NCBI GenBank assembly: GCA_964187785.1
Contig: OZ076409.1
Span: forward strand, 21,764,001-21,828,000
Source: Amphiscolops sp. MND2022
Lineage: Eukaryota
Reading direction: 5' to 3'
Length of the DNA: 64,000 nucleotides
Shown: positions 5,900 to 36,510 of the stretch, piece by piece
How the letters are laid out: every line of letters begins with the position of its first letter
Position numbering within the stretch: the first letter of the stretch is position 1
Program-made: the position numbers and the translations under genes
Notes under the pieces: model-generated
What the model saw: the letters and a program-made list of their open reading frames with translations, nothing else
What the model was told of the DNA's origin: nothing
The model's database searches: none

Positions 5900-6780
5900 A
5901 CTATCAGATATCATGGACCTTTGCCATCAATCAAATGCCATGTGTAATCATGTCGGGGGGAAAAGACACTCACCCGTGGTCTGCAACGAAAGGAGGAAAC
6001 CCCAGTAGACCGGCTTTGCATTTGTTTCACTGGCTTAAGCGAAAGTCTAACACTATGCTCGAAATATTGTCGCATGTCACGTTACACACTTTGGAAAGCC
6101 CGTCGCGTACGGTTCTCATACTTTTCCAAGAGAGTTGGATGATTAAAACATGTCCTAATTGTCAAGAAGTACAACAATTTTGGCAGACTGAAGCAATTTT
6201 TCAAACTAAAGAAACCATGATGAGCCTGCACTTTTACAACCTTTTCAATAACTTTTCCAGTTATAAAGTTTTTTCCAATACGTCTGCCTACGATTTTGGG
6301 CCGAGCGGTGTACCGAGAATGATAATTTCATCTTTCGTTGCTGTTTTGAGTTTCAGGGAAATTGCTGACAGTGTCGATAGTCGTTTTTCAGTGATGTCAC
6401 CAAGGAAAGAAATCACATTTATGGGTTTAATTTTGAGTCCCAGCGTTTGTTCTGCTTCAACAGTTTTTTTAAGATCTTGCGGAACGGTTCTGTAATCATC
6501 ACTTAATTTTCCATCGTCGAGGTACCATAAGTTCATTTTGGAATCCAAACTGTGAATCAGATCCTGAATGGAATCCGAAAGCAAAACTGGAGACTCAGGA
6601 TCTCCTTGCTGGGCCCATTCACGAGATTTAATTACAGAATAACAGTAAAAAAGGAAACTTGGTTGACTGTACGCCGAGTGTGAGTACTTAAAAACGTCAG
6701 GGTGTATTTGAAAAGATTTCTCGAGCAAGAATTGTCGGTTTATCGAATTGAAAACGTTTTCCCAGTGAATTTTCGAAATG
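5900..6780 (-). mobile_element. Internally deleted fragment of the CRE-like non-LTR retrotransposon (RT core joined to 3' tail)
   Basis: AQQGDPESPVLL, WYLDDG and LGTPLGP match the copy at 61221-61880; 5900-6010 matches the shared 3' tail at 59046-59150. Confidence 0.8.
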
Positions 6781-7321
6781 TTTAGTACTCAACTGTTTCG
6801 TTTAGTGAATGGCATGAGACTTTACTGGAATTTAAAGATGATAACATAGACTGCAATGCATCATTCTTTGCAACTGTTTTAACTGGAATGTGATCTTGAT
6901 AATTTATCTTGGTTGAAATGTCAACGATTCCGGATGACTGGTCGACAACCAATTCGTCGACCAAACTAATTGGACGACTGTTCGACACATTTGTCGACCA
7001 ATCGTTCAAAACTGAAACTTATGTTAAGCGGCAAATTATAGGCGTGAAACGTCCAAATTCGAAAAGTTAATATTTTTGAGCTTTTTGGGGGGTACCATTC
7101 CCAGCACTAAAAAATTGAAGGTAGTGCGAATCCTAAAAGAACTATTTAAGCTTCGTTCGAGGGAACCATTCCCACCACTAAAAACTAGCTTGAATGCAAC
7201 ACTTGAATTAACAGTATCAGTAGAAATATGGAATTGTTTTATTTCAGCATAACAGAAACTTGACAAAGCATTATCAAGATAGATGTAACCTAGAGTTAAT
7301 TGAAGGGGGAATATAACAAAG

Positions 7322-9439
7322 TGTTACGACTATTTATCGGGGTGATTTTTCGATTAGTCGCAGTGGTTTTATTTTTGATTGGTGTCGAAGTTGCATTTCC
7401 CGGGATATTTTCGGATTCAGAATCTGTTTCTTCAGTAGTAGCTATGACAGTTTGTTTTTTAACAGGAGCAGCTATTAGTTTTAACACCTCCTTTTGATTT
7501 TCAGCTAAGACTTTGGTAAGATCAGACATGATCTCTTTTCTTAGTGAAGACTTGATTTCCTCTAGATTTTCAGTGATTACTCTAGGAGATTTACTCGTCC
7601 CTGCTACGGGATTTAAGTTTTGGTTAGCCTCAGTTATTGGGGTCTCCATTTCGGTTGAAACTAGTTCTTCAACAGCTTTTCTCTTCTGGCTTCTAGTAGT
7701 CATTTTAGATAGAGTGAGAGAGTGATTATTCTTTGGGAAACTTGAATTCTTCAAAGAAATATGATTTTCAAAACGGAGTATTAACGGAGTAGATTAGGAA
7801 AACTGATTAAACAGATTTACAAATCCTTAGGTATATATACTTTCACAGCATCATTTGTTCCTCACCTAAAAATTCCTAGGAATCCTTAAAATCGGTTTTG
7901 TTCAACAAAAATGCTTAATCATCCTTATTATTTCAACCCTTTTATTAATTGTTCATGACTTAAAATTCCTAGTCACGGATCCCTTACGGAGTACTTGTTG
8001 AAATCATTTTTGTTCATTAACATCATTTCCGGTTTGATCGCGGAAAAAGGCGGCAAAACAAATGTCTAGTTGAAACTTCATCGCGGAAAGCACGCGGGCG
8101 TGAACGATGAATCACTTCACGAGCGGTAAACTTTCAGCTTGCGATAAAAGAAATGACAAGCGAAATTTGTTACGGAGATATCTCGGGCGAATTTTGGATT
8201 GATAAACTGTGATATTTGAGAAGGAACAAATGATGCTGGAAAAGTGATGAATACGAACTAAAAAACCTGCTTATTGTAAATCAGAAAACAACCAACAATA
8301 ATCTATCTAACTTTACATGAATTGAGTTAGTTAACACTGACAAATGCAACAATTAAATAGCATATACATGAAAGCAACGTTTCTACAACGTGATTAATAC
8401 ACAGAATATTCTCCTACAGAATAGGAAGAAGCACCCTTTCGTAAGGATTCACTTTTATCCTAATTAACAGCACGAACTTTTTAATCAATCACTAAAACGG
8501 AGAAAATCCGGGTGGAGAAAGTAAAACCTTATGATAATTTAAATAACTCAGAATGATTCTACATGACCTCAGGAACATCCTAATGTATTTGGATAGCTTC
8601 TGTGTTTTAGGATTTTCCACGCTTGTCTTACATGTATTAACATTAGGTATAATTTCATCGATTTACAATTTGCCCCGTAAACGCTCCGTACGTATTAAGA
8701 TTAGGTATAGCTTCTTCGCATTACAATTTGCTCCGTAAGCGCTCCGTACGTATTAAGATTAGGTATAGTTGAGCAGAGCTTGCTTGCGGAGATAGAGCGG
8801 ACAGCGTTAACAAATTCATTCTTATTCTTTCGCTCAATTGGCGTTGCTATGGTAACTAGGGATGGTGAAAGACGACGCTATTGGTCCGTAAAAATAGAAA
8901 CATCTACTTTTCAATCAAGCTTAGTGACGCTGCCATTACGTTGTAAATATTCTCTTAAGTTGTTTAACTGCATTCTTAAGTGGATATTCACAACTAATCA
9001 ATCATTGGAAAACAATTCCACCATTCTCTTTGTATGTTCTTTCATTTTAGATTGTATGCGTTCCGTTGGGATCACGGAATTAAATATTGTTTTAGTGTTT
9101 TCATTTTAGTGTGGAGAAAAGAAAAATTGATCCCAGTGTTAAGGATGTTTCCTTTTTAATATTTAGATTGGCATGGAATTTTCATCAGTCGGAACCGGAA
9201 GTGATGAAACGATTGCATGTGAAATCATTAAACCGGAAATTTTCTTTTTGTCTAAATCATTTTTGAATAATTTACGTTGCGCTTCCGTTAAACTTAATTC
9301 GTGCTGCTGTTTGGATAAAAGGTAAGGCATTAAATAGAGTTTACTTAATGTTGTGTAGCTCTGCCGTATCCTTTTCCTCGCGTGAATTGCGGAATTCCTC
9401 CACAGCAAGTGAAATCCCGACCGGGAGCGGGTCGTGACA
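7322..9439 (-). repeat. 3' LTR of element A
   Basis: Direct repeat of 20854-22971; about 11 substitutions and no indels seen by eye. Confidence 0.97.
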
Positions 9440-10079
9440 GGGCGCCTCTATAGCCTGTTGACCACGGTCTGGGGCAGTGGGGAATCTCTCTGGTGATCAA
9501 TACTGGTTGTTTTCGTGCTCTTGCCAGTTTTGTAGAAGTATAGCGCGTTCCCCGACCGCACAACGGGCTGTTTTCTCGGCTGCTTTGTAGATCTATGCCA
9601 TAGGCGTTTTCGATTTCTTCTACTGCTGGCTCCATCAAGTCGTCGAGTTTGTCGGCTTTTGCAGGCGATCCATTTTACTGAAGCTCTTTGTTAGACACGT
9701 CTCGTAATACTGGGGCGGGCTGCAGCGGCGGTAGTTGACGGGGAGTATCCGGCTCTTCAAAGTAGCTTTCTTCAGACGTTTCAGTACTATGCCCTTCCAC
9801 TATGAAAGCTTCGCCAGGGCTTGTAGTGCCGAGGTTTATTTTTCTCGGTGAACCGATAGTCTCAAATGTAGACGCTGAGATGCCGGATAAATTTAGACTA
9901 TTGATAGAGTCCATCATCTCTTCTGCGCTGCCTTTTGTGGCTTCTAAGGAGGCTTCAGAAAGATCCAGTGTTGTTATCACATTAAGCGGGAGTATTTTGA
10001 TCGGGGTGCTCTGTCTTACGTTGCTACCCCGTTCTTCTTCGTCGGAGGAGATATCGATAACTAAGTCGTAGTTATTCAT
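9345..10079 (-). CDS. Accessory sense ORF3 of element A: acidic, Ser/Thr-rich protein of ~244 codons with one in-frame TAA (9675-9677), ending inside the 3' LTR
   Basis: ORFs 9675-10181 and 9345-9638 share a frame and are separated by a single stop. ATG at 10079 gives MNNYDLVIDISSDEEE. A positional counterpart exists in element B. Confidence 0.55.
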
Positions 10080-10169
10080 TTTAAGTTTTCTGATTATTGC
10101 AAGCTGTCTTATCTTTACGTTTAGAATGCGGCAAGTGAAGAGGTTAACTTTCTTCCGTTCGTGATTTTC

Positions 10170-10400
10170 CTGCATTCTCATTGGCTGTTATTTTCCTTTT
10201 TATATCAATTCGTTTCATCTTCGGAAAGCGTTTCACTTCCATCTGCGTTGTGATTGGCTGAACCATAGGAATAAAAATGTTAAAGTTTGAACTTCGTCGT
10301 GACGTCACTAATTTCTTCCCGGTGATGTTCCGTGTGACGTCACAGACTTGAACTGACTCTTTCTTCCTCTTTATGATCTCAAACTAATTTGGACCATTTT
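10170..10400. promoter_or_regulatory. Putative internal bidirectional promoter with two CRE/ATF palindromes and two CCAAT boxes
   Basis: GTGACGTCAC at 10299-10308 and 10334-10343; ATTGGCTG at 10180 and 10253; lies between the divergent starts of ORF3 (10079, -) and the antisense gene (10516, +). Confidence 0.55.
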
Positions 10401-10515
10401 TCGTCCTTTATGGAAACTATGAGCTTGCAACGATGGTGTATTTGGATTAATTTTGGGTAATGTATTTTCTTTGTTTCAGACTGTTCTGAAGATTCTTTAC
10501 GTGGTAACTTCTCAA

Positions 10516-13500
10516 ATGGATGGAGAAAGTGTGCCTCCTACTGTACCTGCCGGCGGCTTCCTTAGTGGAAACGAGACAGTGTTTAATTACACTGATGATG
10601 ACGTTCATCCTGAACCGGCATTTGTTCGTTCTGTTCCAGGTTGGTAAAAATCTTTTCTGACTTCCATGGGTAATTGGACTATTTGTTTTTGGTGATCAGC
10701 CTTTGGAGTCCTACCCGCAACTCTGACGCGTCGAACCAGATCTTGATTTTTCAGTAACTCAACCTGTCAGTTCATCAGTGGCTGTTATTTCTTCTGGTGC
10801 AGTTTCCGAGGTAGTTCCGTCTGCATCAAGCCTTTTGCCCTCGGTTTCTACCATACTTTCTACTGCGCCAATCTCTTCTCTGCATGAGGCTCTAGTTGGT
10901 CTCTCGAGTACTGTTCCGCCCAATGTGTCTTCAGCTGCTGCTCCTCCTAATTCTCCTGTGGTTCCTTCTGCTGTCGGGGAGGCTTCGGGAGTTCAGGCGT
11001 TACCTGTGCGTTTTCGCGCTGTGCAGGCCGAAGACAGTGACAGTGAGTCTCAAGGAGGTGAGACCGATCCGCCGCCCGGGGAAGAAACGAGTTAGTAGAT
11101 TTGAATTTGTTGTATTAGTAGCGTGTTGGGTTTTGTTTTCGTCGAGTTTTCGGAGTGTGATATGCGTATTTTGTTAGCTCCCAAAACGAGTGGTTCTCGC
11201 AAGAAGGTGGGTTTTGGGACTTTGCCCAAGCGTGCTAAGAAGCCGTTGCCTCCTCCTCCTCCACTGACACCCGCTCCAGGAGGTTGGACTAGTAAGTTCT
11301 TGTTGGTTGTGCTTGTTTCTTTTGTTTCTTCTGTGTTTTTTTTTGTTGACATATAGTACTGTTCAGTTGTACTGTATTTCTTGATTGTGTAGGTCTAGAC
11401 GATCCGGAGGTGGCACATATCCTTGGCACTGGTTTGAGTCCGGACGTTGTTCGTGAAGTTGGTCGTCAGGTCGCCGATCATGTGGAGAGTCATCTACAGA
11501 CTGGTGGGTTATTTGGTGTTTTGTCTGTAGCTAGGTGTTTGTGTTGTATTTCGTATCGGTAGTGGTCCGTGTTCGTTGTAACCATAGTAAACTTTGGTTT
11601 GCGTGTTTTCATAGGTCTTGACGAGTTTGCTGATAGGGTGGGCAGTCGGCTGAGTGCGCGTGGCAAAGGAAAGAAATACAGTAGTCGGAATGTGTTGCAT
11701 CGACGAATGTTGAGCCTCCATCCTGCTTTTCCTCATTTCGTTAGTGGCGCGAAGAATGGCAAAGGCACACATTTTCACTGTCGTGTGTGTAAACGGGACG
11801 TGGGCATGAGAGCACAAGGTTCTGGAGAGTTTGCGCGACATTTTCAATCTGATGGCCACTGGTTTAAAGACGTGACGTATCGCGTGCACATGGGCCTGCC
11901 TGTTCTCAATAGGCTCATGGAGCCTATGGAGTTGTCTGACAGTCAGCTGGCCGAATACCGTTCGAAAGCATTTGAGGATTTGAGTGAAGGCTATCCTTTT
12001 CCTGAGGATTTGCTGCCGAAGCACTCCCGCGTGGAGTCGAAAGTCCCTTTCATGACACTGGTGGGTTGTGTCTGTGAGCTTTTGCGTAGTGGTGGCGATT
12101 TTGTGCTTTTGCGCCATCTTTGGAGCCACTTCTTGTTGACACTACCGAAGGAGAGGGGACCACAGTTTAATCTCAACTGGAGTCGTTCCGAGACTCTGGT
12201 GAGTATGTTTTTGCTTGTTTTATAGTTTTTGGCACTCTGTATAATACTCGTATGTGGCCGTTTTTATTGCTTCCTCTTTTTTTTTGTATTAAGTAGGTAA
12301 AGGTATGGGACGTTTTGAGTGTTATCCGTTTTAGGCGTTTCTGTGCCAAGGCTTGGCTCCGCGGGTGTTGCGCCTTATGCTGAGTAGTGTTTCTGGCTTT
12401 CGTGCGTATGGATTGCAGTACGAGAAAGAGAACGATGTGGAGCGATGCTACGTGTTATACTGGAATGACAAGCATTTGATGAAGATTTGTATCGGGTGTG
12501 AATCGTTGGATCAGGCCATGCCACTTCCAGAGTTAGTGCCCTTGTCCCGCATTGTGTGCAGTTTGGGTTCAACTTTGTTGCCCATTGCGATTCTCGGGGG
12601 GAGTCCGTCATTGCTTCGTGTGTTAGAGAATGACCGTTCTGATGCTCGCCGTTTCGTCATATATGAGAAGTTTGATGAGGAGGTGTTTCTGCGATGTGTG
12701 CAGCAGGCAGATCAGGACATTTTCGGGATGGTGAACGTGATAACGTTAGTGGACTATCTGTTGCAGCGTCTGAAAAGTGCTTTGTATGAGGCCTGGACAG
12801 AGGGCAAGGTGGTACTACGCAAGTGTATCCGGCAAGGGTCCGTTGATTTTATGGATTATCGTCAGCTGTTGACCGAATTTATTGAGCTGTGGTCTTGCAT
12901 ACGTCCTTTCATTCGCTGTACTGGGCACCCGGGGGCGAAAGGAAAAGCTGACAGTGTTAGTCAAATTTATTGTTTTTATGTGTTCTCGATTTGTGTGCTT
13001 TTTCCCCCTTTTTCTCAGTAAATTTGTAACGTATGGATGATGGTTGGTTGTAGATGAAGGGGACAGACTGGCACATAATCGCTGACAATATGACACCTTA
13101 TCGTTTCGGGCTGTTACGATTGGTGTTAGATACATGTGAGTATGGCCTGGTTGATCGGTTTTGTAGTTTGTGGATGCTTGTTTGATTGGTTCTTTCTGTT
13201 GCCGGATTGATGTCGCGAATTGAGCTTAATTTCATTGTTGATCGTTTCCTGTTGTTTCAGTTCACATCAATTTCACGAAGCTTCATCAGGGGCGTGAAGA
13301 CTACGCCTTTCACGGCTATGGTGAGCTGTGTGATTTTATCTACTGCCTTTTGCTGAAAACCCGGGCTACAGAGAGTCTGCCTAGTCTGAACGATTGGGAC
13401 GGGTTCATGGACGAAGAGAAGGTCGCTGCTTTTCCTTCCATTGCTGACGATGTGTTTTTGGCAAATTGCGATTTTGGCCGGGAGTTGCTCGCGGGCAAAA

Positions 13501-14456
13501 CTAGTGAGTTTCCGACTTTCCGTATTCGATGCCGAGAGTTTATGGATCAGCTAGTCAGTATTATCTTGAAAAGTCCAAGTGCCTCATCGCGTGTGTCACG
13601 GGGTATTTATAGCTTTTGTCCTGAGCTATTGCTGGAGGGTGATAGTCAGCTTGTTTTCCAGTTGTTTCCGGACCTATGCCGTGTTCTAGAGTCATGTGGC
13701 TGTCTGTCTTCAGATGATTCTAAGGCTGCAGTTGAAGAATTTAGCAGTTATGTGGTGGAGAAGCGAAATCAGCACGAACGGTCCATGGGAGTGGCCAGTG
13801 AGATTCCCAACATGGTCGATTGGCTGCTACGAGATTTCAGTTTCTTAGCTCGACATCGCGTCTGCCGCGTTTGGAAGCTATGTGTATTGGTGACTGGAAG
13901 ACCTCGCGCAGTTTATCCGGCTGTGAATTTTGACCTTAGCGGTAGCAAGTTGAGTATAGCCAAGTTCCAAGAGTGTCTACATTTAGTTCAGAGCTACGTG
14001 TTGAGTCCGGGGTATGAGCACCAGTCTTTCTTCACTGAGCCTACTATGGAAGCTGTGCAGGATGCTATCAGTAATGCTGGCGTATTCTATGTTGCTCAGA
14101 ATTTTGATTTGTGGGCCGATTTTTGTGGGGGGAGTGTGTCAGATTTCATCTCCCAATATAGTCGTTTGTATGATGCCTTTTTGTTGGCACAGCGGAAATC
14201 ATATGAGATTCAGTATGTGGAAAAGAATAAAGCGAACCGGCTTGCTCGTGCTCAACAGATGTCAACAAGTGCTTTTGCTGTCGGCGCTGATGCTTCGGGT
14301 TCTGGGAAGAACAAGGTGGGAGGTCAGCGGTCTACGTCAGGGTCAACAACGAGCAGCAATAAAGAGGCTAGAAGTGGTTTTGTGGTGTCAAAAACCAAGA
14401 AAAAATTGTCAAAAAATGATGATCCTGATGTTCGGCATAGGATAAAGAAGATTTGA
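10516..14456 (+). CDS. Spliced antisense gene in element A, ~1055 aa, BED-like zinc finger plus hAT-transposase-like body; exons 10516-10639, 10755-11090, 11178-11291, 11393-11503, 11615-12198, 12335-12955, 13054-13135, 13261-14456
   Basis: Seven GT-AG introns of 87-136 nt with T-rich acceptors join the exons into one stop-free 3168-nt frame. Zinc finger HFHCRVCK...FARHFQSDGHW at ~11770-11862. Homologous to the 32354-36510 gene. The first three introns are less certain than the last four. Confidence 0.8.
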
Positions 14457-14615
14457 ACTTTGTTATTGATGTGAACTGGTGAACTTAGTCTTGTTTTTCT
14501 TCTTTTCTTTGCCAAGATCCTTTATTTTATGTTGCTTTAGTTAGTTGATTATTCTAATGAAAAGAAAAATTGACGTTGCCATTCCGGTTCGGTTTGGTTC
14601 TCTGATCGTTTTTAT

Positions 14616-17600
14616 TCAGTTTTGAGGTTGAGAATTCTCTTCCGCAGTGATTGCGTCCAGCATCCGAAAATCAGGATGTGCATTAGGTCTAGGATTAGGT
14701 CGTAGGTTATATCTTCCCGTTTTTCTAGGATTGTATCCGACAACTATAGGCGGCAATGTAGGCGGTATTGGGGGACTTTCTGTAGGCGGCGGGGTCATTA
14801 TGAAAGGGTTATCACTGACGTCTAAGTTGAATGACGTGTTATCTCCGGAGGATGTTTTATCCATCATTGTATTCTCATCTGCAGTTGTTGTAACTGCTTC
14901 GTGGTCCGTTGTATCTCCGTCTTCAGTTTGTACTTCCGTGATAGTAGCTTCTTCATTGTCGTTTTCCGTTGGGGTTCCGAACAGAACTTCTCCGAATTCG
15001 GTTTCCCAAGCTTGCGCGTACCAATCATCGTGGGTTGTTTTAACCTCGGGATCTGGAAGCTGATCTTCCACTTTGACTGTTACGTCAGGTACTCGCTGAT
15101 TGGGCGCGTATAGCCTTAGGCGAATTCTATGGAGGGTTTGCGTATATCTTGTTCCCGTCCGTCTTACGACGTAATTGTTATTGGAAAGGACTTTGACCAC
15201 TATATATGGTCCTGTCCAAATGCAATCTTTGAAAGCGAATTTCATTGACTGGTTATCAGCCTTCGGGTTCAGGACGTAGCAATAGTCATTGATTTTCAAT
15301 GGCGTTGCTGTCGCTTTTTTATCATAATATCGCTTATACTTCAAATATGATTGCATGAGGTTGTCCTTGGCTGACTGGTGGATTTCAGCGATTTGCTTTT
15401 GTAATTCGTCCGTTAGGTCTTCGTTAGCGTCTTTTTTCCATTCTGGCTTGAGTCCCAGCTTGATATCCAGAATGTTGTACGGAATGCGTCCGTGAAATAC
15501 GGTTGTTGGTTCGCATCCTAGGCTTTCGTGGTAACTAGTGTTGTAGTTCATTACTGCAATTTGTACGTATTTGTGCCACATTGAACGGCGTTCTCCCGTT
15601 GATATCTTGAGGGAAGTCTTTAGAGATGCATGCGTTCTTTCGAGTATGCCGATTGTTTGTGCATGCTTTGTTGACGCGTGGCTAATCCGTATGTCCAGTG
15701 TTTGTGCTATTTGGTTCACGACATCTGATCGGAATTGTGATCCTTTATCAGTCAGAATCACTGTAGGCAGATAACAGTGACGTGTCATAACGTCAATTAT
15801 GCATCGTCCGACTGTTCTAGCAGTCATGTCTTGAGTGGGGTATGCGAACAAATAACGGGAGAAAACGTCCATCATGGTTATGATGTGTTTGTAGCCGTTT
15901 GATGAGGGTAGATTGGGTAGAATATCGACTTCTAGACAATCTTCTGGTCCGAATGTGAATTCTGTATTACTCAGCATTTTAGGACGTATTTGGCGCGTGT
16001 CGATTCGTTTGTTGGCTATGCAATCTGGGCAGTTGATTACCCAGGCTCTAATTTTCCGCGCTAGTCCCGGATAGTAATACTTTGCTCGGCTTTCCTGAAT
16101 CATTTTGGTTATTCCTGGGTGTTTGTTCATTTTTCCATGTAGCGTCGATAGGAGTTCTGGTACTATATGTTTCGGTATGAGGATTTGGTGATGTGTTACT
16201 GTGCCATCTTCTCCGTAGTATTTACGCATGAGTACTCCGTCTTTGACTATTATTCTTTCTTCGTGACGTAGTAGGTTTCGTCCTCTGGGTTCGGTCTTGA
16301 GAAGGTGTTTGTCGTATTCTTCGTGAAGCAGCCGTAGTTTCAATGCTTTCAATATCGGGTCCGCATCCTGTTCGTTGCGGATGCGGGCGTTTTCCTTGAT
16401 GGCTCCAAAGGCGTATACTGCTGAGTTGAGAGGTATGTGCACTGTTTCTGTGACTTCCGTTGTCAAGTTTTGTTGTTCCTTTTCGTCTATTGCTCGTTGT
16501 TTGCTAAGGGCTTTCCTGGCGAAAATTTCTTGTTCTGATTCCTCTTCTTCGTCTGGCAGGAAAAAGAGTTGTTCTCCGTCCGCAACATCTGTAGACTGTC
16601 GGTTAACCTCGATAGGTGCCGTTATGATGTCGTCTCGCAATTTGAGCTGGATTCTCTCTTTTGGAGTTAATTCGAGGCGAGACAGGAAGTCGGCTGCTGT
16701 ATTTTGCGAGCCAGCTACGTGCATGATGCGGAATTTGAACTGGAGTACGTAGTCACAGGCATTCCAGAGAGCGGGTGGCGTTGTTTTCGTCTGGAAAAAT
16801 CTCGTTACTGATCTGTTGTCTGTCAGTACTAGTGTAGGTAGTGTTGTTTCCCAGAGAATGTGACTATATTCAAGGAATGCGTGATATATTGCGAGGAATT
16901 CTTTACAGTATATCGACATCTTCAGTTGTGACGGCGAGAATACGCGGGAACCAAAAGCGACCGGTGCGAAAGTTTTCCGTTTGGAGAGTAGCTTTTTGTC
17001 GTCGTTTTCTTCTATCATTAGGGCGTAACCTGATGCCCGGAAGCTTGCGTCCGTCATTAGTACGTATTGTTTTCCCGCAACTGGTTGTCTGAGGGCTAGC
17101 CCACATGCTTCCGCTAGGCTTGCGTTGATGGCTTTGAAGTTGTCGACTAATTCTTCTGATATGGTGATTTTGGCATCTGCTTTTAGGAGTTCGTACATTC
17201 CAATCATTTTTTCGGACAGTCTTGGTATGTAGTTTCTGTAGTAGTTGATGAATCCAATGTATTTCTGGACTTGTTTCTTTGACCGGGGAAATCTGATTTT
17301 TGACAAGAAGCTGGTGATTTTGTGTTCTTGCGGTGCTACTCCGTGGGGTGTGATGGTTCTTCCTAGGAATTCAATTTGGGTGACACCAAAGTGGCATTTT
17401 TCAATTGTGAGTTTTAGTCCTGCCTTGCGGATGCATTTGAAGACTGCTCTGATGTTCTTAATGAGTTGTTCCGTTGTGTTGGCGGCGATTCCGATGTCGT
17501 CCACATATTGGGCACACTGGTCTGCTTTGATGACGGTGTCAAGGTATTCCCGCATGAAGCTCGAAAAGGCTGACAAGGCTCTACTAAGGCCTTGGGCTAG

Positions 17601-19832
17601 CCTACGATAGGCAAACGTTCTACTAGCAAAATTAAATGCAAGGAGTTCTACTGACCTTTGATCTGCCATTTGGAGGCAGTGATAGGCTTGTGAGCAATCT
17701 AGTTTGCAGAACAGTTGCTTCCCCGCTAGGTGTTGTGCGGCATCTGAGAGGGTGCTGATGGGGTGGTTGTTGTTTATGTAGTCATCTGAGATGAGGGCGT
17801 TGATCTTCCGTAAGTCTACTAGGAGCCGTAGTTTTCCGTTGGGTTTGCGTTGCGCGAAGATGGGGCTGGCATATTTCGAGAATGGGAGGGTTGTGATGAT
17901 CCCGTATTTGTGCATCAGTGCCAGTTCTACTGTGAGATCGTCTTTGAGGTTGATGGGTACGGGGAGGCTTTGTGTATATACCGGTTTGTCGTTTTTGGGA
18001 GTTAGGCATACCTTGAACTGGTTGTTCATTCCGATGTCCAGTCGGTGACGTGCAAAAATGTCATTGAATTCGACTAGGGTGGACTCTAAGTTTTCACGGT
18101 CTTCTCCCGTTATTAGTGAATCATTCCATTTGAATAGCGAGAGGAATTGTGTTCTAGATTTTTCGTCTTGTTTGGGGTCCAGTTCTTCTAGTCTTTGTAG
18201 TTCACGTAGTTCTCGTAGAATGCGTTGTTGGATGGGTGTGTGTTCCGATTCATCTCCGGGATTTTCGGGAGTTGGGAACCAGAATTTCTCTTCTGTTTGT
18301 TCTGACGAATCAACTTGCATCAGTGCATTAACGTACGCAACAACATCGTCGTGTTCGGTGAGTAGATTGAGGGCTGCTATGTCTACTGCTCGTATCAATT
18401 TCGTTTCTTCGGGTTTCAGTATTTGTAATTCTGCTAGTTTCGTATGTGGCGTTACTGTATAGGGGAAGTCTGTGGTGTTCGCTATTTTAATCGCGACTCG
18501 TTTGTCTCGGGCTGTTGTTATTGCTGGGGCTACTATGAGTTTTGCATTTTCGTCGAACTGTGGTAAAGGTTGGACTGTCCCAGTTATTGAGTGGTCATTG
18601 CTTGTGGTGATGGAGGCGTGGATGATCCGTGTGGCTTGGGCTGGTATGGTGTGTTTTTCTTCCGTTTTGATAGTGATGGGTTTGGGGTTGCACTTTTGTC
18701 TTTCATCTTTTAGGGCTAGAGTGATTTGTATTTTAGGAAAGTCTATGGTTCCTTGTGCAGTATCTAGGATTGCGGAATGTTTCCGGAGGAATGCCAGGCC
18801 AATGATTGGGTAAGATGTTTTGGTCATGATGATGAAAGTCTCCTCGAACGCGTAATCCCCGATTTTGAATTGCATTGTGTATGTTGCACGGGCTTTTTCG
18901 AGTTCTGTGTTGGCATATTGTATCTTGAAAGGGGGCGGAGGTGCTTTCGCGATTATGGTTGCGTTGGCTTCAGTTTGTATCTTGTCTGCATCTCTTTCAC
19001 TGATGACGTTGATGTAGGCTCCCGAGTCGACTAATGCATCAATTCTAGTGTTTTCAAAGTCGAGAGGAATAGAGAGCATTCTTTTCTTCTTTTTGAGGGT
19101 AATTGCCGACATTAACGGAATGTAGTCGTCGTCTTTATCATGTTGTATGAATTCTTTTATGATGTTGAGATCGTATGGCAGTTGTTGTGGGCATTCCGTT
19201 ACTTCGTCGTCTTCATGATTGTTGTTCTGATTTGGCAATTCAGATGCTGTTGTTGGGGGTGATACTATTTGATCGGCTACTCCGCGTTGTTCTTTTGCTT
19301 GTTGTGACCATATTGTTTTATCCTCAATGCAGATAATATTCTCTGCATCTATTGGTGTGTACGTGGTGGTGACGGGTGTTGGCGAGGATTGTGTTGTCTT
19401 TTTTAGGATTGGTGACGAAGGTGTTGGTAGGGTTGTACTCTCGGTGACTTGAGCTTGAGGATTTGAAACTTGGATCTTAAAAGAGAGTTTGTTTGTGTCA
19501 TAGATGGCTGGTTCATCCCAGGGATCACATCTATAGTCTTTATCATATATGTAAATGCGTTCGGTCTTTGATTCTGGTAAGGGTCTTTTTAGTGTCGCGT
19601 AGTTATCGGGCGATTCTGTTATCCATTGGGGTAGTGGTGTTGGGTCTTCTGGGTGTCGTGCATTGTGTCTAAGTATCATGCCTACGTTCCAACGACGTTG
19701 CCAGTCCTGTGTCGGTTCTTCGTTGCATTCCGTCATGAAGTCTTCTTCGTAGTGATTGGGGGGGTCTTCTATTGTGTACGCCCTCGCGTCTACCGTTTCC
19801 CCGAAGCGGAGGCGCGGCGTTTTCAGTTTTTT
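14616..19832 (-). CDS. pol: Pol polyprotein of element A (protease, dUTPase-like spacer, RT, RNase H, integrase), probably expressed by -1 frameshift from gag
   Basis: 1706-aa ORF, open upstream to the slippery site; ALVDSGA, LPFSKYASPIF, YVDDI, MTDAS, HPGITK...CPDC, DILP...TDKGSQF...LERTH, WTGPY; Gypsy domain order. Confidence 0.97.
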   Translation of the reverse strand, partial: KKLKTPRLRFGETVDARAYTIEDPPNHYEEDFMTECNEEPTQDWQRRWNVGMILRHNARHPEDPTPLPQWITESPDNYATLKRPLPESKTERIYIYDKDYRCDPWDEPAIYDTNKLSFKIQVSNPQAQVTESTTLPTPSSPILKKTTQSSPTPVTTTYTPIDAENIICIEDKTIWSQQAKEQRGVADQIVSPPTTASELPNQNNNHEDDEVTECPQQLPYDLNIIKEFIQHDKDDDYIPLMSAITLKKKKRMLSIPLDFENTRIDALVDSGAYINVISERDADKIQTEANATIIAKAPPPPFKIQYANTELEKARATYTMQFKIGDYAFEETFIIMTKTSYPIIGLAFLRKHSAILDTAQGTIDFPKIQITLALKDERQKCNPKPITIKTEEKHTIPAQATRIIHASITTSNDHSITGTVQPLPQFDENAKLIVAPAITTARDKRVAIKIANTTDFPYTVTPHTKLAELQILKPEETKLIRAVDIAALNLLTEHDDVVAYVNALMQVDSSEQTEEKFWFPTPENPGDESEHTPIQQRILRELRELQRLEELDPKQDEKSRTQFLSLFKWNDSLITGEDRENLESTLVEFNDIFARHRLDIGMNNQFKVCLTPKNDKPVYTQSLPVPINLKDDLTVELALMHKYGIITTLPFSKYASPIFAQRKPNGKLRLLVDLRKINALISDDYINNNHPISTLSDAAQHLAGKQLFCKLDCSQAYHCLQMADQRSVELLAFNFASRTFAYRRLAQGLSRALSAFSSFMREYLDTVIKADQCAQYVDDIGIAANTTEQLIKNIRAVFKCIRKAGLKLTIEKCHFGVTQIEFLGRTITPHGVAPQEHKITSFLSKIRFPRSKKQVQKYIGFINYYRNYIPRLSEKMIGMYELLKADAKITISEELVDNFKAINASLAEACGLALRQPVAGKQYVLMTDASFRASGYALMIEENDDKKLLSKRKTFAPVAFGSRVFSPSQLKMSIYCKEFLAIYHAFLEYSHILWETTLPTLVLTDNRSVTRFFQTKTTPPALWNACDYVLQFKFRIMHVAGSQNTAADFLSRLELTPKERIQLKLRDDIITAPIEVNRQSTDVADGEQLFFLPDEEEESEQEIFARKALSKQRAIDEKEQQNLTTEVTETVHIPLNSAVYAFGAIKENARIRNEQDADPILKALKLRLLHEEYDKHLLKTEPRGRNLLRHEERIIVKDGVLMRKYYGEDGTVTHHQILIPKHIVPELLSTLHGKMNKHPGITKMIQESRAKYYYPGLARKIRAWVINCPDCIANKRIDTRQIRPKMLSNTEFTFGPEDCLEVDILPNLPSSNGYKHIITMMDVFSRYLFAYPTQDMTARTVGRCIIDVMTRHCYLPTVILTDKGSQFRSDVVNQIAQTLDIRISHASTKHAQTIGILERTHASLKTSLKISTGERRSMWHKYVQIAVMNYNTSYHESLGCEPTTVFHGRIPYNILDIKLGLKPEWKKDANEDLTDELQKQIAEIHQSAKDNLMQSYLKYKRYYDKKATATPLKINDYCYVLNPKADNQSMKFAFKDCIWTGPYIVVKVLSNNNYVVRRTGTRYTQTLHRIRLRLYAPNQRVPDVTVKVEDQLPDPEVKTTHDDWYAQAWETEFGEVLFGTPTENDNEEATITEVQTEDGDTTDHEAVTTTADENTMMDKTSSGDNTSFNLDVSDNPFIMTPPPTESPPIPPTLPPIVVGYNPRKTGRYNLRPNPRPNAHPDFRMLDAITAEENSQPQN
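19780..19832 (-). promoter_or_regulatory. Putative -1 ribosomal frameshift signal (A AAA AAC plus downstream stem-loop)
   Basis: gag ends CCA AAA AAC TGA; pol is in the -1 frame; ACGCC...GGCGT and inner CCG/CGG pairing follow a few nt downstream. Confidence 0.75.
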
Positions 19833-21235
19833 GGCTGGATTTCAACAGTGGGGATTGGTTGTTCACTGATTTGGCTGGTAGGGATTGTGAATTCATGACG
19901 TTTCTTCCTGGGGTCATTCGCCGCGTTAGCTCCGTACCAGCAGTTCTCGGTTTTGTGGAGCTTTCCGCAAGTGTCGCACTTTGATTTGGGTGGTTCAATG
20001 GTGTTGGGGGCGGCGTTCCGTGCTTTAGTTTCGTAGTAACGATCTTTTCGTAATTTGCGGCATTGTGCTTTATAATGCCCCTGTTTGCCACAGTGAAAGC
20101 AACTTCCTCGTTGGGTGAGTTCCTTTTTTGGTTCCGGTGGGACGACGTCGACCGTATTTAGTGGTACTAGTGTGGTTTCGTCTGGGGCTCCCAGGCCATT
20201 AAGGCGCATCTCTCGTTCGAGATGTAGGACAATATCATTATAGGGTTTGTCCTCGAGGTAGGCTCGGTTGAGGATCTTTTTGACGTGGTCTGGCACTTTG
20301 GCGTATATGGCCTTGTCTATAAATTTTTGTGCTTCAGAGCCGAACGCTTCTTTAGCCGTTTTTTGTAGTGTATCCAAAAATTCATGTAATTTTTGTTTGG
20401 TTGGGTCAAAATGTAGCGAGTTCCATTCGCATCTCGCTTTGGCAGAAGATTGAAAGTCTCCGAAGCGCCGTTTAAACGCCGTAATTACCTCCTCTAAGTT
20501 ATCTTTTTTGGCATCGTCTAAGTTGCAATATGCTTGTAGTGCATTGCCTCGTAGTAGTGAGTGGAAGTAGTTGATTTTTTGGATTTCTGTTAGATGTGGG
20601 TACATTTTTATGTTGTTCCGGAATAAGTCCTCGAAAAGTTCGAATTTTTCTGACTTACCATCGAATACAGGCAATGATGCAGTGAGTGCTTTGGGCATTG
20701 GGGGTAGGTGGGGCGGCTGGTGTATTTCTGGTTGGGGAGCGAAGAGTAGTCGTGATGTCGAAGGACGTTCGTTGGGTGGCAGGCTTTGTGGACGGTGCGG
20801 TCGTGTTTTCTTCTTTCCGAGGTTCGTTGAGTCATTGAGGACTCCTGTCACCATGTTACGACTATTTATCGGGGTGATTTTTTGATTAGTCGCAGTGGTT
20901 TTCTTTTTGATTGGTGTCGAAGTTGCATTTCCCGGGATATTTTCGGATTCAGAATCTGTTTCTTCAGTAGTAGCTATGACAGTTTGTTTTTTAACAGGAG
21001 CAGCTATTAGTTTTAACACCTCCTTTTGATTTTCAGCTAAGACTTTGGTAAGATCAGACATGATCTCTTTTCTTAGTGAAGACTTGATTTCCTCTAGATT
21101 TTCAGTGATTACTCTAGGAGATTTACTCGTCCCTGCTACGGGATTTAAGTTTTGGTTAGCCTCAGTTATTGGGGTCTCCATTTCGGTTGAAACTAGTTCT
21201 TCAACAGCTTTTCTCTTCTGGCTTCTAGTAGTCAT
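19823..21235 (-). CDS. gag: Gag of element A with zinc knuckles; begins inside the 5' LTR
   Basis: MTTRSQKRK start at 21235; LPVFDGKSEKFELFEDLF capsid-like region; CFHCGKQGHYKAQC and CDTCGKLHKTENC. Confidence 0.92.
   Translation of the reverse strand: MTTRSQKRKAVEELVSTEMETPITEANQNLNPVAGTSKSPRVITENLEEIKSSLRKEIMSDLTKVLAENQKEVLKLIAAPVKKQTVIATTEETDSESENIPGNATSTPIKKKTTATNQKITPINSRNMVTGVLNDSTNLGKKKTRPHRPQSLPPNERPSTSRLLFAPQPEIHQPPHLPPMPKALTASLPVFDGKSEKFELFEDLFRNNIKMYPHLTEIQKINYFHSLLRGNALQAYCNLDDAKKDNLEEVITAFKRRFGDFQSSAKARCEWNSLHFDPTKQKLHEFLDTLQKTAKEAFGSEAQKFIDKAIYAKVPDHVKKILNRAYLEDKPYNDIVLHLEREMRLNGLGAPDETTLVPLNTVDVVPPEPKKELTQRGSCFHCGKQGHYKAQCRKLRKDRYYETKARNAAPNTIEPPKSKCDTCGKLHKTENCWYGANAANDPRKKRHEFTIPTSQISEQPIPTVEIQPKN
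20841..20853 (-). promoter_or_regulatory. Primer binding site TGGTGACAGGAGT (possibly tRNA-Leu-like)
   Basis: Directly follows the CA end of the 5' LTR and begins with TGG. It resembles the complement of tRNA-Leu 3' ends (from memory, TGGTGTCAGGAGT) with one mismatch. Confidence 0.75.
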
Positions 21236-22971
21236 TTTAGATAGAGTGAGAGAGTGATTATTCTTTGGGAATTTTGAATTCTTCAAAGAAATATGATTTT
21301 CAAAACGAAGTATTAACGGAGTAGATTAGGAAAACTGATTAAACAGATTTACAAATCCTTAGGTATATATACTTTCACAGCATCATTTGTTCCTCACCTA
21401 AAAATTCCTAGGAATCCTTAAAATCGGTTTTGTTCAACAAAAATGCTTAATCATCCTTATTATTTCAACCCTTTTATTAATTGTTCATGACTTAAAATTC
21501 CTAGTCACGGATCCCTTACGGAGTACTTGTTGAAATCATTTTTGTTCATTAACATCATTTCCGGTTTGATCGCGGAAAAAGGCGGCAAAACAAATGTCTA
21601 GTTGAAACTTCATCGCGGAAAGCACGCGGGCGTGAACGATGAATCACTTCACGAGCGGTAAACTTTCAGCTTGCGATAAAAGAAATGACAAGCGAAATTT
21701 GTTACGGAGATATCTCGGGCGAATTTTGGATTGATAAACTGTGATATTTGAGAAGGAACAAATGATGCTGGAAAAGTGATGAATACGAACTAAAAAACCT
21801 GATTATTGTAAATCAGAAAACAACCAACAATAATCTATCTAACTTTACATGAATTGAGTTAGTTAACACTGACAAATGCAACAATTAAATAGCATATACA
21901 TGAAAGCAACGTTTCTACAACGTGATTAATACACAGAATATTCTCCTACAGAATAGGAAGAAGCACCCTTTCGTAAGGATTCACTTTTATCCTAATTAAC
22001 AGCACGAACTTTTTAATCAATCACTAAAACGGAGAAAATCCGGGTGGAGAAAGTAAAACCTTATGATAATTTAAATAACTCAGAATGATTCTACATGACC
22101 TCAGGAACATCCTAATGTATTTGGATAGCTTCTGTGTTTTAGGATTTTCCACGCTTGTCTTACATGTATTAACATTAGGTATAACTTCATCGATTTACAA
22201 TTTGCCCCGTAAACGCTCCGTACGTATTAAGATTAGGTATAGCTTCTTCGCATTACAATTTGCTCCGTAAGCGCTCCGTACGTATTAAGATTAGGTATAG
22301 TTGAGCAGAGCTTGCTTGCGGAGATAGAGCGGACAGCGTTAACAAATTCATTCTTATTCTTTCGCTCAATTGGCGTTGCTATGGTAACTAGGGATGGTGA
22401 AAGACGACGCTATTGGTCCGTAAAAATAGAAACATCTACTTTTCAATCAAGCTTAGTGACGCTGCCATTACGTTGTAAATATTCTCTTAAGTTGTTAAAC
22501 TGCATTCTTAAGTGGATATTCACAACTAATCAATCATTGGAAAACAATTCCACCATTCTCTTTGTATGTTCTTTCATTTTAGATTGTATGCGTTCCGTTG
22601 GGATCACGGAATTAAATATTGTTTTAGTGTTTTCATTTTAGTGTGGAGAAAAGAAAAATTGATCCCAGTGTTAAGGATGTTTCCTTTTTAATATTTAGAT
22701 TGGCATGGAATTTTCATCAGTCGGAACCGGAAGTGATGAAACGATTGCATGTGAAATCATTAAACCGGAAATTTTCTTTTTGTCTAAATCATTTTTGAAT
22801 AATTTACGTTGCTCTTTCGTTAAACTTAATTCGTGCTGCTGTTTGGATAAAAGGTAAGGCATTAAATAGAGTTTACTTAATGTTGTGTAGCTCTGCCGTG
22901 TCCTTTTCCTCGCGTGAATTGCGGAATTCCTCCACAGCAAGTGAAATCCCGACCGGGAGCGGGTCGTGACA
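20854..22971 (-). repeat. 5' LTR of element A
   Basis: Direct repeat of 7322-9439, followed by the PBS on the minus strand. Confidence 0.97.
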
Positions 22972-31340: not shown

Positions 31341-32353
31341 GTTTCTTAGCAATTTTGCGAGTTTTATTGAGTAACTTGTCTCTAATTTTGTTTCCAATAT
31401 GGCGGTTAAAATTTTAGTTGATTATCCTGATCCGTCGTAAACTTTTCTGAATGGAATTTCGCTGACGTTCTATCGTCTTTGATAACTTGATGTTTCCCCT
31501 CATCAGCACTAACATCAGAAGAGGCGTGAATAGCACTTAAGGTGCAAATATCAAATACACTCGTCTCGAAAGGGGTAATTAACGAGCCGCTTGAAGGTAA
31601 TTAACGGCTCGCGACACCAAACCTTCTCAAAATGGCTCCAGCCAATCAGAATCGTCCATCGATAAAATGAAAAAAGAATGAATAAAATGGCGAGAATAAT
31701 AATTCTAAGTAACTCAAAATGGCGAAAATTCTAACTAAGGGTAATTGGGATAACGGAACAAAGCAGTAAAACAAAACGACGCAAATGGCCATAATCGGCC
31801 ACTAACTAAATAAGCTGTAAGTAATGGAGAAATCTTTGTACATTTCGCTGGCAGACTCCATGTACAATTTTAAATATTTAGATAATCGCATAATATTAGT
31901 CTGATACTTTTCTTCAGCCACGAACTCCAACTCTCTATCTTTTCAATTGTTACCTTTTCAATTCCTTTTGTAATTTTCCATTGTTATAATTGTATTTTCT
32001 TCACTTCTACGCCTTCAAATACACTGCCTAATTATCACCATCTCGTCGTCACCCTCACTATCACTGTTGGCCTTCTCCACTTCGGGGTTTTCCTGGTCTT
32101 TTCCCCACTACTTCCAGTCTTGGTCAGGTTGCCTCTAGCAACTGTTTTAACTTGGATCAACACTCTGCAGTCCAATTGCCTAGCAGCATGTCTTCTGACT
32201 CTGGTTGGTTTGGTTTTCCATTTTAGAACTAATTCAACTTGATCAAGGTTAAATTCGTTCAGTAGACACTTCCTGTTTCCATCACTAAACGCGTGATAAC
32301 ACGTTTCATTTAAATTTGTCAGACATTTCCGGAAGGTTTCTAATCGCGGCAAA

Positions 32354-35300
32354 ATGAATACGTATCAAGGAAGTACACCGCTAAATTTCATTCCCTTTCG
32401 TATAGAGAACCCACCAAAAGACAATGCTCTTGCTCTAACCCCCTCCCAAGTCAGCAATAGAGCCGTCGTCGAAAACTTGGCCACAACATTAGAGGGACGA
32501 CCTCAAGATGAAATAAGTATCCAAGTTCCTCAGCCTGAAGCGAAGCGTGTCAGCCCAGCACTCAGCCAAGACAGTGACGCTGACGTTACTGCTTATGCTG
32601 AATCTGTAATCCAACGGATGCAGCATGCACAAACTCACACGGTACAAGACAGTAGACTTTCAGAATCTGACCCACCTAAGGGTCAAGAATCGGCCAATGT
32701 CCCACCAGAATTGATACCAAACACACTAGAAAATCGCAGATCAAGTACTCCCATCCAGTCTGAAGAAGAAGAGAGGCAGGAGGCAGATTTATCAGCTTTG
32801 GAACCTGCCCTAAAGTCATCATAACCTCCGAATCTCAACTGCCTGAACTGAGGGACGGACAATTCGGGCCAAGTGGATATAAGTGGCGCCCAATCAAGGA
32901 CCAACGAAGACAATGCCTCGTCAGTCTGTGATGTGCCGTCGCTACCAGGAGGTGACCTCAAGGTACGTTTCACAGTGGGTCAGAATGAGGAGGAAGAATC
33001 CACCGAGGAGTCAAGCAGACGTGTCCCGGTGGAACTGTACGGGTATCCCCCTTTTGCCCCTGAGACTGGAACTGAATGTGAAGAAGATACCAGTTTAGAA
33101 ATGCAGCCCTTAGGGTCTGGTAAAAAACGTGCGGCGAGTGGGAATCTAAATCTGGACAAACTCCGAGATCTTTCCGGTCGCAGTAGGGCCATTTTGAAGG
33201 AGTATTTCGAGAAAACCTCTCCGATCAGACTCCCTGTTGGGCACACTACCGTCGTTTTTACTGAGCCTCAGGTGTATCATCTTCTACGCACCCTCACAAA
33301 TGAGACCCTTCGAAGATCTTTCACCACTATGGAAAGGATGGTGCTTGATGCTGTTCGCGGAAGTCCAACTGCCCTCCCATCTCGCACAGCTCACTTTCAA
33401 CTCAGGGGGCGATCACAAACTCCCGGACCTTGATCCCGCAGTGGATCAGAAACTGATAGTGATAGACCAGGATCAGCTACGGACCAATTTGGTTCAAGCA
33501 CTGATGATACCGGTGGGTCATTTTCTTACGAAGAGACCGACAGTGCAACTGAGATGACCTTAATATCAAAGTCCTTCAAACGAACTCCTGCAATCCCCCT
33601 GGGCAGTGGGACTCAAGCGGATGAAACCAGCAATCAGCAACAGACAGGACTTGAGGCGGAAGGATTCAGCAGCCAAGACACTACTCTGCTCGAAATGCGA
33701 GAACATGCCCGGAAAGGCTCGGGAGAAGGACCATCTACATCCAAAAAGAAGAAAGCCAACAAGAGAATTTCTCGGAGAGGTGTGCCCATGAAAGAAGTGT
33801 TTTTCTCTAAAGTAGGGTGAACAAGATCGTTTATCTCCGTCCCAGCAGATCCGTTACACAACCCTCATAAGATCTGCTGCCATATAGGCAAGAAGAATTT
33901 TTATATAAAGTCAAAAGGGCCTTACGAAATCCTCAGGCACCACTGGACAGACCGCCATTTGAGACGCGATCAAAGATGGCGTTATGAACATCTGCGCAGC
34001 ATAGATCCTGTTAGTGGTAAGGTGCAACATCGTGTCAGAGGCGCCAACGTTAAGATTTTGACAAAAATTGAGCTGGCCAACCAACTGCCTAAGTTCATCA
34101 ACGTTGAATAGGTGGACATAAGGGAAAGGTTCCCCTTTTACGAAGACTTTAAACGAGGAACCACCACAGTTTTAGTCACCCAAGAAACACGGGTCAAGAC
34201 TCAACTTTGCCTGGTAGGCGATTTAATAAAGACGATTGGAGACCTGTCTGTCCTAAGGAACTTCTGGTCCAGGATGGGGGCCTACACCAATCATCAAGCG
34301 ACAGTTTGTGATTTCGACTGGGGCGAAGAGCAAATAAGATTAAGTGTCCATTCGATGGCTCGATCTCAAACTTGAGTAATTCCTGTTCTAAATAGTCTTG
34401 TTTCCATTTCAGGCCATATTCCAACATTTTTTCATAAGTGCCCTGAGCGACATCGCTGAACAAATCACAACTCAGCAATGTTTCGCCATAGAGTTTGAGA
34501 CTGCCGGGGTTTACCGTTACATGAACGCCAAATTCTGGAAGGGTCATGAGCTTTGCCGAGTCCTCATTTGCCGAAGCTCGGCATCTGACGTGACGGGTGA
34601 ACTTGGATCTCTGGCCCGGTTTCTGTCGGCAGCATCGACCCAACCAGACGTGGTGGCTTGTTCTGGCTGCCATGTTGACCTGGTCAAAACGATCGACCAA
34701 TCGGAATACTTCCCGCAAGCTGTTTCTGCTTCGAACAGCTATCATTGCCTACACTGATGAACAAGTCCAAATACTCCGTCTTGGGCCAAATAGACTTTTT
34801 CTTTGTGCTCCAGGCCCTGATGATTTCTCTAGGAGGGTCTCTAACTGAAGAATGGGCGATGCGGACCCCAGAACTCACTAAAGTAAGTATTTCACTTTGC
34901 CTTTCCTCCTAATGGCCATGGGCCGGGTAATTTAGGTACGGTGAGGAATAGTTTGCAATAATGAAATTGGATTTTACAGGCAGTGACCAATTGCAAGCTT
35001 GACATCCAGACCCTCCCGGCTCTATGTACAGAGCGTGCCAAGGAATGGAAATCATGGAAATGTATCTGACCGAACATGCCCCCATACAAGGAGGTCAAGA
35101 AGTCCACAGCAGGGTTAGGCTTTATTTCATTTCTCTAATGATATAGTTAAGTGATTCCAGTAAGAGATTCTTGGTTCCCTTATTTGCTGAAAAGCTGAAG
35201 AACACTGGCATGTGTATTCTGTTTAAGGTACAGTGCTTCGAATGGTCTCTGATCTGTGACGAATTCTTCGTCGTCAAGTTGGAGTTCTTCAACAGGCTCG

Positions 35301-36510
35301 TGAGCGAATGTAAGTACTACACTTTAGGTAACAGCCCATTGTTTTATTCCACTTCAGGCATTGATTTGCGTTTTCACACGTGGCCAGTTTTCCTGTGAAA
35401 CTCCAGCACAGACGTGATGCCTCCATTTACCTTTGTGGAGACGTCTGCCAGTTCATAAGCCTGCTCTGTTCCCGTATTTACACTCCTGATACGGCTCCTC
35501 TGGCTAACGCCTGGTTCTTGCTATTACGTTTTCAGACTAGTGAGGCCAGTTTACTGGGCGAAGAGGAGTATTTGGTGCGCCTGGAGCTCACCAACAAAGT
35601 GTCGTCGGCAAGCAAAGCAAAGGCGGAAGGAATGCACTTTGGTAAGAAGTCAGAGCGCCCAGCGATCCTGGCAACCACTGAGACTGTGAAGTCTGGCTTC
35701 ATCAAAGACAGCCAGCAGTATGTCCAGTATCTGATCAATGAAGTCCTCCGACAGACTGGAGTCACTACAAACATCGTGAAAGGGATAGCTAATTTCGATC
35801 CTTTCATCTTGTTCAAGCGCCCTATGGACGTGGCCCTACGCCACTTTACCATTTTGTACAGCACCTTCTCCCTCCGTTCTTGGGTTTCTATGCCAATGAA
35901 TCCTTGTGCCGGGATCAATACATGCAACTACTTGACCACCTGCGTACAGCCTATGGCCTTAGTTTTGATATAACCAGTGTCTCTGGTGATTTAATTGAGT
36001 TTTTGTCCGAGCTGGAGTTCCTCCGAGACCGAAGTTGTTTCGTTTACCTCTTCAAATTGTGCTGCCTGTGTGCTACTTCCGTTAATCCAACATACCCTGA
36101 TGTCACTTTTGGGACAGTTTCCACCGCCGGGCGTCAGAGTAGATTGACTGACGTCATTCTTCCCTGTCAGAGTTACATAGCCAACGTGCGAGACTCAGTG
36201 GCTTTCTGTAGTGATGATGGCAACCTTGCTGAGTTCATCGACCTCGCTTCTTCTTTTGGGCGATCTGCATTTGCTCCTGATTATGATCCCTGGACCTACA
36301 TGGACATTTTCGGCTGTTCAAAAATCTATAAGTCGTTGTTGGCTTCCTATCTGGTAGCTCTTTCCACCCCTCAAAAGACTCCAATCCGAACTGTACCTGG
36401 AGATACAAGTTCTGTGGCCGATATGTCTGCCGTGGAAGCACCGTAGTGCTTCTCGTTCATCCTCGTCGTCTGCCATTGAGGTTACTGACCCTGGTTCATC
36501 TTAAGACTAA
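32354..36510 (+). pseudogene. Decayed antisense spliced gene of element B, homologous to 10516-14456
   Basis: Low-complexity N-terminus; zinc finger remnant CHI(G)KKNFYIKSKGPYEILRHHWTDRH at ~33878-33958; introns at about 34340-34412, 34883-34979, 35114-35227 and 35310-35377; IVKGIANFDPF and YLFKLCCLC match VSRGIYSFCPE and RVWKLCVLV in A. Confidence 0.8.

Follow-up and report, generated by a model that had tools for sequence, protein, structure and literature searches.

The locus analyzed here raises the question of where a large spliced gene on the antisense strand of a retrotransposon came from and what it does for its carrier. It lies in a 64,000-nucleotide stretch of the Amphiscolops sp. 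MND2022 genome (assembly GCA_964187785.1, contig OZ076409.1, positions 21,764,001 to 21,828,000; hereafter, the window), in which a young and intact Ty3/gypsy long terminal repeat (LTR) retrotransposon, element A, occupies positions 7322-22971 on the minus strand. Between pol and the 3' LTR of element A, on the opposite strand, we predicted a gene (10516-14456, plus strand) of 8 exons and 7 introns, all GT-AG, encoding a stop-free product of 1055 aa. An initial annotation had recognized an antisense protein at 11615..14200 and likened it to a catalytically dead hAT transposase; the protein proved real, but its gene is larger and comprises 8 predicted exons. The reading that we favor, with a probability of about 0.55, is that this gypsy-carried zinc-finger protein is hAT-derived and noncatalytic and binds DNA on behalf of the element, as an activator or anti-silencing factor.

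The gene model was examined against related copies, which fall into three lineages sharing 18 to 28% protein identity: A (the gene of element A), B (the type of element B, a second element in the window), and C. Of 17 A-type alignment rows, 16 or 17 retained each of the seven core splice sites, and the start codon and seven upstream splice sites were each retained in 12 to 14 of 14. All motifs quoted in the initial annotation were found in one predicted reading frame, within exons 5, 6, and 8 (CRVC at 11779, HFQSDGH at 11839, YGLQYEK at 12407, YVLYW at 12449, SFCPE at 13611, and RVWKLCVL at 13866), and their element B counterparts were located in 34392-34757, 35365-35973, and 35793-36446. An uninterrupted relative of 890 aa, P0069, matched the modules of exons 5, 6, and 8 in the same order, leaving a gap as large as exon 7; the spliced model aligned to this intronless protein without a break over 723 columns (26% identity, E 6e-63). 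The existence of a lineage with a single-exon core thus supports the predicted splicing. An 879-aa frame at locus L071, considered as a processed copy, was rejected, since its first exon is long and runs on through an in-frame intron that lacks stops.

The antisense reading frame is no chance occurrence. Genome-wide (1.07 Gb), 6632 candidates were obtained for exon 8 and 6909 for exon 5; 106 of 134 scored matches to exon 8 and 141 of 150 to exon 5 were stop-free. In lineage C, the core is one frame of 857 to 918 aa. Around an 82-nt exon, three introns agree in position and phase between lineages A and B; none of the three occurs in C, and B has one extra intron. At loci chosen by the antisense protein alone, an integrase on the opposite strand adjoined the gene in 19/20 A, 17/18 B, and 12/12 C cases; the exceptions were L049, a tandem of fragments, and L081, where only reverse transcriptase (RT) was found. 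Two close pairs of antisense genes gave ratios of nonsynonymous to synonymous substitution rates (dN/dS) of 0.12 and 0.16, while among distant A-type copies dN was 0.17 to 0.5 and dS was at least about 2 or saturated. Purifying selection and the adjoining integrase in 48 of 50 sampled loci bear out the earlier proposal that the protein had been co-opted by the retroelement.

Trees of integrase and antisense protein (33 rows, with rows below 180 aa dropped; unrooted) both resolved clades A, B, and C, but conflicted within lineage A, and the branches of the antisense protein were much longer than those of integrase. Element A was 96% identical to L039 in integrase DNA and 98% identical to L041 in RT, whereas exon 5 DNA of L039 and L041 was only 68 to 69% identical to that of element A over the aligning part; L050 showed the opposite pattern relative to element A (88% and 92%). 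This discordance between pol and exon 5 indicates that the antisense cassette has likely been exchanged by recombination.

The initial description of a C2H2-type finger was correct, although its spacing is CxxC-x16-H-x5-H and not x15. The Cys and His residues of the finger were 91 to 97% conserved across the alignment. Assignment to the zf-BED subtype was weak, with 1 of 150 relatives matching at E 0.0099 and language-model (Atlas) neighbors scoring 0.85 to 0.87. A structure model of the N-terminal half showed the finger, then helices, then three strands, a helix, and a strand, and the VIA fold comparison placed RNase H-like folds on residues 220-309 of this model; the helical region of exon 5 stands where the hAT DNA-binding/intertwined domain would be. 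The hAT-like layout of finger, helices, and predicted RNase H-like core therefore held up, but hAT ancestry was not demonstrated at the level of sequence.

On predicted strands and nonsignificant alignments to hAT references, the column on or beside the first hAT Asp, at the end of strand 1, contained Glu in 52, Arg in 25, Lys in 3, Val in 3, other residues in 4, and Asp in 0 of 87 rows. The Asp-to-Glu replacement suggested earlier is accordingly true of lineages A and B; with Arg or Lys in lineage C, however, a carboxylate is not conserved at this position. Where the second Asp would stand, Ser, Arg, or Leu precedes a 91% conserved Gly. Neither an RW motif ([TS]RW) nor, as had been noted at the outset, ERxFS was found in the 1055-aa model, and its sole CxxH (aa 618) is far from the expected place. 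A by-eye match of the C-terminal PxVxF-x-L-x-G to ERxFS gained no support from profile comparison. An intact Asp-Asp-Glu (DDE) triad together with terminal inverted repeats (TIRs), named earlier as the combination that would speak against a dead derivative, was looked for: we found no DDE and no inverted repeat of at least 40 nt near the gene (the search covered lengths from 40 nt upward), and the unit is bounded by LTRs and a 5-bp duplication. Its residues make it very likely that the antisense protein is no DDE enzyme.

Descent of the protein from a hAT transposase is likely but unproven. In Foldseek, Hermes (8edg) ranked first of 350,542 chains (E 0.013, 403 columns), and six Hermes rows were within the top 23 ranks. 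Atlas neighbors with an assigned family were mostly hAT, 8 of the 10 best sharing the hAT clan, and also included zf-C2H2_12/zf-BED. The genome is rich in true hAT elements (150 scored PF05699 matches), and one CGGBP1-like (DUF659) family of them, at L110, L142, L143, L144, and L148, has an H-x5-H finger like that of the antisense protein. This family is the best candidate donor group, although likewise unproven.

Several observations weigh against a hAT-derived DNA-binding regulator. The Hermes match, which the initial annotation, together with missing DDE residues, had named as support, misses E 0.001 and comes from a model with a predicted local distance difference test (pLDDT) score of 54, with a template modeling (TM) score of 0.18 and a root mean square deviation of 24; both structure models of the protein are of low confidence (pLDDT 54 and 59). 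Atlas scores were all below 0.9. Searches with hmmsearch and hhalign against the Ac-like, CGGBP1-like, and C-terminal hAT sets of the genome were nonsignificant (probability at most 1.5%), the reference profiles being shallow (the homologue search for the CGGBP1-like reference yielded only 3 proteins). In a custom profile test, CGGBP1-like hATs reached z 3.1 versus z 2.9 for an integrase decoy, and the C-terminal half gave nothing. The best structural neighbors of the finger were RNA-binding fingers of the U1/matrin type. Finally, a stretch of the L039 LTR was 95% identical to element A, whereas the antisense proteins were only 54 to 64% identical, so that protein and LTR sequences follow each other only loosely.

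Other comparisons were likewise negative. Pfam gave no informative match in sets of 15, 35, 22, and 150 proteins (window exons, alignment members, and relatives). The hAT C-terminal dimerization domain, assumed in the initial annotation, was not recovered by Pfam, profile, or fold comparison: PF05699 had no Pfam match in 22 members, hhalign of C-terminal windows did not exceed reversed controls, and model pLDDT there was below 50. A permissive full-length profile alignment scored within or barely above its own shuffles, and a PDB sequence search with two profiles gave 0 matches at E 10. The C-terminal model had no Foldseek match under E 0.6 and only generic helical matches in VIA; for the N-half model, Hermes was not in the 50 rows of either VIA list, and the viral fold library gave nothing below E 0.16. 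A genome search for DUF4371 was silent throughout, as were its controls, and no longer relatives were found with the C-terminal profile, a weak test that also missed P0069.

Two further parts of the cassette are of note. Head-to-head with the antisense gene lies a sense accessory open reading frame (ORF), which in the window copy is interrupted by a stop at 9675-9677. Open, acidic sense ORFs of 210 to 300 aa occur at the same place in lineages A, B, and C (L033, L034, L039, L071, L087, and L119); their start regions read LVIDISSDEE (A) and VIYISSSEE (B), which we take to resemble SUMO-interaction motifs (SIMs), and the B-type ORF also carries a CxxC. The other part is intron 1, whose DNA was 83 to 92% identical in all 14 other A-type loci, while coding third positions were saturated across the A subfamilies sharing it and introns 5 and 7 could be aligned with no copy but the nearest. 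Bases just beyond the acceptor of intron 1 are complementary to its donor, and the intron contains TGACGCGTC. The consensus fold has a stem bridging both splice junctions, which is invariant and hence uninformative, and an inner stem in which both partners of one pair differ in 7 of 18 rows. Single-sequence fold z-scores for intron 1 were nonsignificant, and Rfam gave 0 matches in window positions 7300-15000.

As we picture the system, an internal promoter between the antisense gene and the sense ORF would produce the antisense mRNA, the intergenic region presumably acting as a promoter shared by the two divergent genes. The antisense introns would persist through retrotransposition because packaging and reverse transcription act on RNA of the opposite strand, from which they are never removed by splicing. 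Lineage C would have lost, or never gained, the core introns, two histories that an unrooted tree of three clades does not distinguish. The finger and following helices may bind element DNA, as hAT and CGGBP proteins do, with the dead RNase H and the helical body as a scaffold; the Ser/Pro-rich, acidic N terminus could recruit host factors, and the Ser/Lys-rich tail, which resembles a nuclear localization signal, could serve nuclear import.

Other explanations were weighed against the same data. An equally dead and selected accessory gene might stem from another DDE family (Mutator/IS256, Kolobok, or P) or from an uncatalogued RNase H-fold protein. We regard such an origin as unlikely: the first rank of Hermes extends across finger, helices, and core, the Atlas neighbors belong to hAT families, and the finger-helix-core spacing sets the first strand in register with three hAT references, in alignments that were mostly nonsignificant. 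Conservation of the entire transposase-sized body, not of the finger alone, would be needless for a simple transcription factor and speaks for an integration tether, in which the finger sits on host DNA or chromatin and the dead body on integrase or cDNA ends; transposases natively bind element ends, which counts for the same view. The cassette, however, appears to have moved among near-identical integrases, and its divergence is much faster than theirs. This behavior, as would be expected of a factor in conflict with the host, is more in keeping with a role in contesting host silencing than with a fixed component of the integration machinery, and a tether appears quite unlikely to us.

Lower again in our estimation, and very unlikely, is a role on RNA, in which the finger would bind the genomic RNA or the conserved intron 1 and so control splicing, export, or packaging. 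The frequency of true hAT elements in the genome favors a chance-inserted, decaying DNA transposon that is passively carried, or a transposase that is still active; both are extremely improbable, as the gene is under purifying selection, keeps its introns, is inherited along with three gypsy clades, and lacks catalytic motifs and flanking inverted repeats of 40 nt or more. Returning to a hAT-derived regulator, a more specific form of it seems doubtful to us: the two genes would form a swappable cassette in which the spliced dead-transposase binder and the SIM-bearing acidic protein find element DNA and undo SUMO-dependent silencing, with intron 1, conserved and structured, as a switch.

Element A shows the features of a Ty3/gypsy element: LTRs with TG...CA ends, a target duplication (the 5-bp CAAAG at both outer flanks), gag, and a pol in the order protease, RT, RNase H, integrase. 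Its LTRs are 99.5% identical (11 differences). The gag frame begins within the LTR, so that the primer-binding site is inside gag, and the first gag codons are repeated in the 3' LTR (7322-7793). No clear polypurine tract was seen ahead of the 3' LTR. Both LTRs contain a 58-bp tandem repeat (8634-8768 and 22166-22300), a candidate binding array for the finger of the antisense protein.

Table 1. Positions of the retroelements, the antisense gene, and its neighbors in the window
Feature	Position	Strand	Remarks
Element A, 3' LTR	7322..9439	-	2118 bp, TG...CA ends
Sense accessory ORF	9345..10187	-	Head-to-head with antisense gene; acidic, likely disordered
Intergenic region	10188..10515		Between the two divergent genes
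Exon 1	10516..10639	+	ATG at 10516 in 13/14, donor GT in 14/14 A-type rows
Intron 1	10640..10754	+	Unusually conserved; possible structured or protein-bound element
Exon 2	10755..11090	+	Ser/Pro-rich low complexity; acceptor 13/14, donor 14/14
Exon 3	11178..11291	+	Basic/Pro-rich; acceptor 12/14, donor 12/14
Exon 4	11393..11503	+	Acceptor 12/14, donor 13/14
Exon 5	11615..12198	+	Zinc finger (11779-11859) and helical region; splice sites 16/17 each
Exon 6	12335..12955	+	Predicted RNase H-like core, then start of helical insertion; splice sites 17/17
Exon 7	13054..13135	+	82 nt; splice sites 17/17; equal size and phases in lineage B
Exon 8	13261..14456	+	Helical C-terminal part, Ser/Lys-rich tail; stop 14454-14456
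Element A, pol	14616..19841	-	Intact, 1741 aa; protease, RT, RNase H, integrase by Pfam
Element A, gag ORF	19823..21325	-	Open; begins within 5' LTR
Element A, 5' LTR	20854..22971	-	TGG primer-binding-site start directly after LTR
Element B	28569-44986		Older, broken; LTRs 28569-30655 and 42927-44986
Element B, lineage-B antisense gene	32300..36500	+	Disrupted by stops and a frameshift

Further observations concern other copies and repeats. L049 (G000:C5:67567600-67577599) contains three tandem partial antisense-gene copies with no pol nearby, and B-type matches at a 4.8-kb spacing are also present at G000:C6:33.77 and 33.87 Mb. A profile search gave 1264 clusters at 50% identity, and the ten that were checked were ENA records. 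One of these, P0096, had no match above 37% identity among the matches listed for this genome, which offers a lead, and only a lead, that the antisense-gene system may extend to other species. A 675-aa frame at L151 (G000:C8:59340338-59344384) is 28% identical to P0096, has no integrase match within 1.5 kb, and is possibly a fourth lineage or a stand-alone copy. Long tandem satellites of about 45-bp units flank a C-type element on both sides (L112 8500-10000 and L129 2830-7880). Elsewhere in the window, a perfect 263-bp inverted repeat with a 1-nt spacer (24800-25326) is either a fold-back element or an assembly artifact. An ORF with a PHD finger (59939-61117, plus strand) runs into an apparent non-LTR RT start; related repeats lie at 51770-53904, 58824-59729, 61132-63818, and 5900-6780, and the window holds several decayed copies.

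Among known systems, the VANC proteins of VANDAL DNA transposons are element-encoded, fast-evolving, and sequence-specific and have been proposed to counter silencing; their likeness to the antisense protein is a functional analogy only. HBZ of human T-cell leukemia virus type 1 is a bZIP protein. Like HBZ and other retroviral antisense proteins, as outlined in PMC7264820 and PMC11963269, the protein studied here would be the nuclear regulatory product of an antisense accessory gene in the 3' part of its element; unlike HBZ, which uses a 3' LTR promoter, its gene starts about 1 kb inside the element and head-to-head with a second ORF. Plant Ty3/gypsy elements carry the antisense ORF aORF-3R between pol and the 3' LTR (Retand with TRP28/PF04195, maize Grande gene23, and rice RIRE2), for which these same two papers give the origin as unknown and leave the function open. 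Position, orientation, presence in most copies (here, 48/50 sampled antisense loci lie beside integrase), a proposed DNA-binding regulatory role, and an own upstream promoter (in Grande; predicted here) are common to both, whereas the gene described here is multi-intron, encodes about 1000 aa, and combines a C2H2 finger with an RNase H-like core. TRP28 (PF04195) had no Pfam match in the antisense proteins (sets of 15, 35, 22, and 150), and the word "intron" is absent from the main text of both papers. According to PMC9289625, LTR elements rarely fix additional conserved domains. The planarian Burro elements carry other domains (PMC6431247). None of the titles and abstracts listed in literature searches, which did not extend to supplements, Repbase notes, or subscription journals, described an LTR element with a spliced antisense gene of transposase origin.

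The antisense gene would be a natural example of retroelement introns that are protected by lying on the antisense strand and that differ among lineages, and its likely traceable origin, clear selection, thousands of copies, and natural variants make the role of gypsy antisense ORFs testable. Like Hermes and other hAT transposases, the protein has the order finger, helical domain, RNase H-like core, and helical insertion, and a similar size; unlike them, it is without DDE, CxxH, RW, ERxFS, and TIRs, is borne by an LTR element, and has no significant profile match. According to PMC8097297, domesticated hAT proteins with a finger and DNA-binding domain bind DNA sequence-specifically and can lack any Pfam match, and like the CGGBP1/ZBED proteins treated there, the antisense protein is likely hAT-derived, intron-bearing, noncatalytic, and missed by Pfam. 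It differs from them in retaining the whole transposase body and in that its "host" is another mobile element: if the hAT origin is true, an LTR retrotransposon lineage has domesticated a hAT transposase as hosts do, one class of transposon thereby domesticating another.
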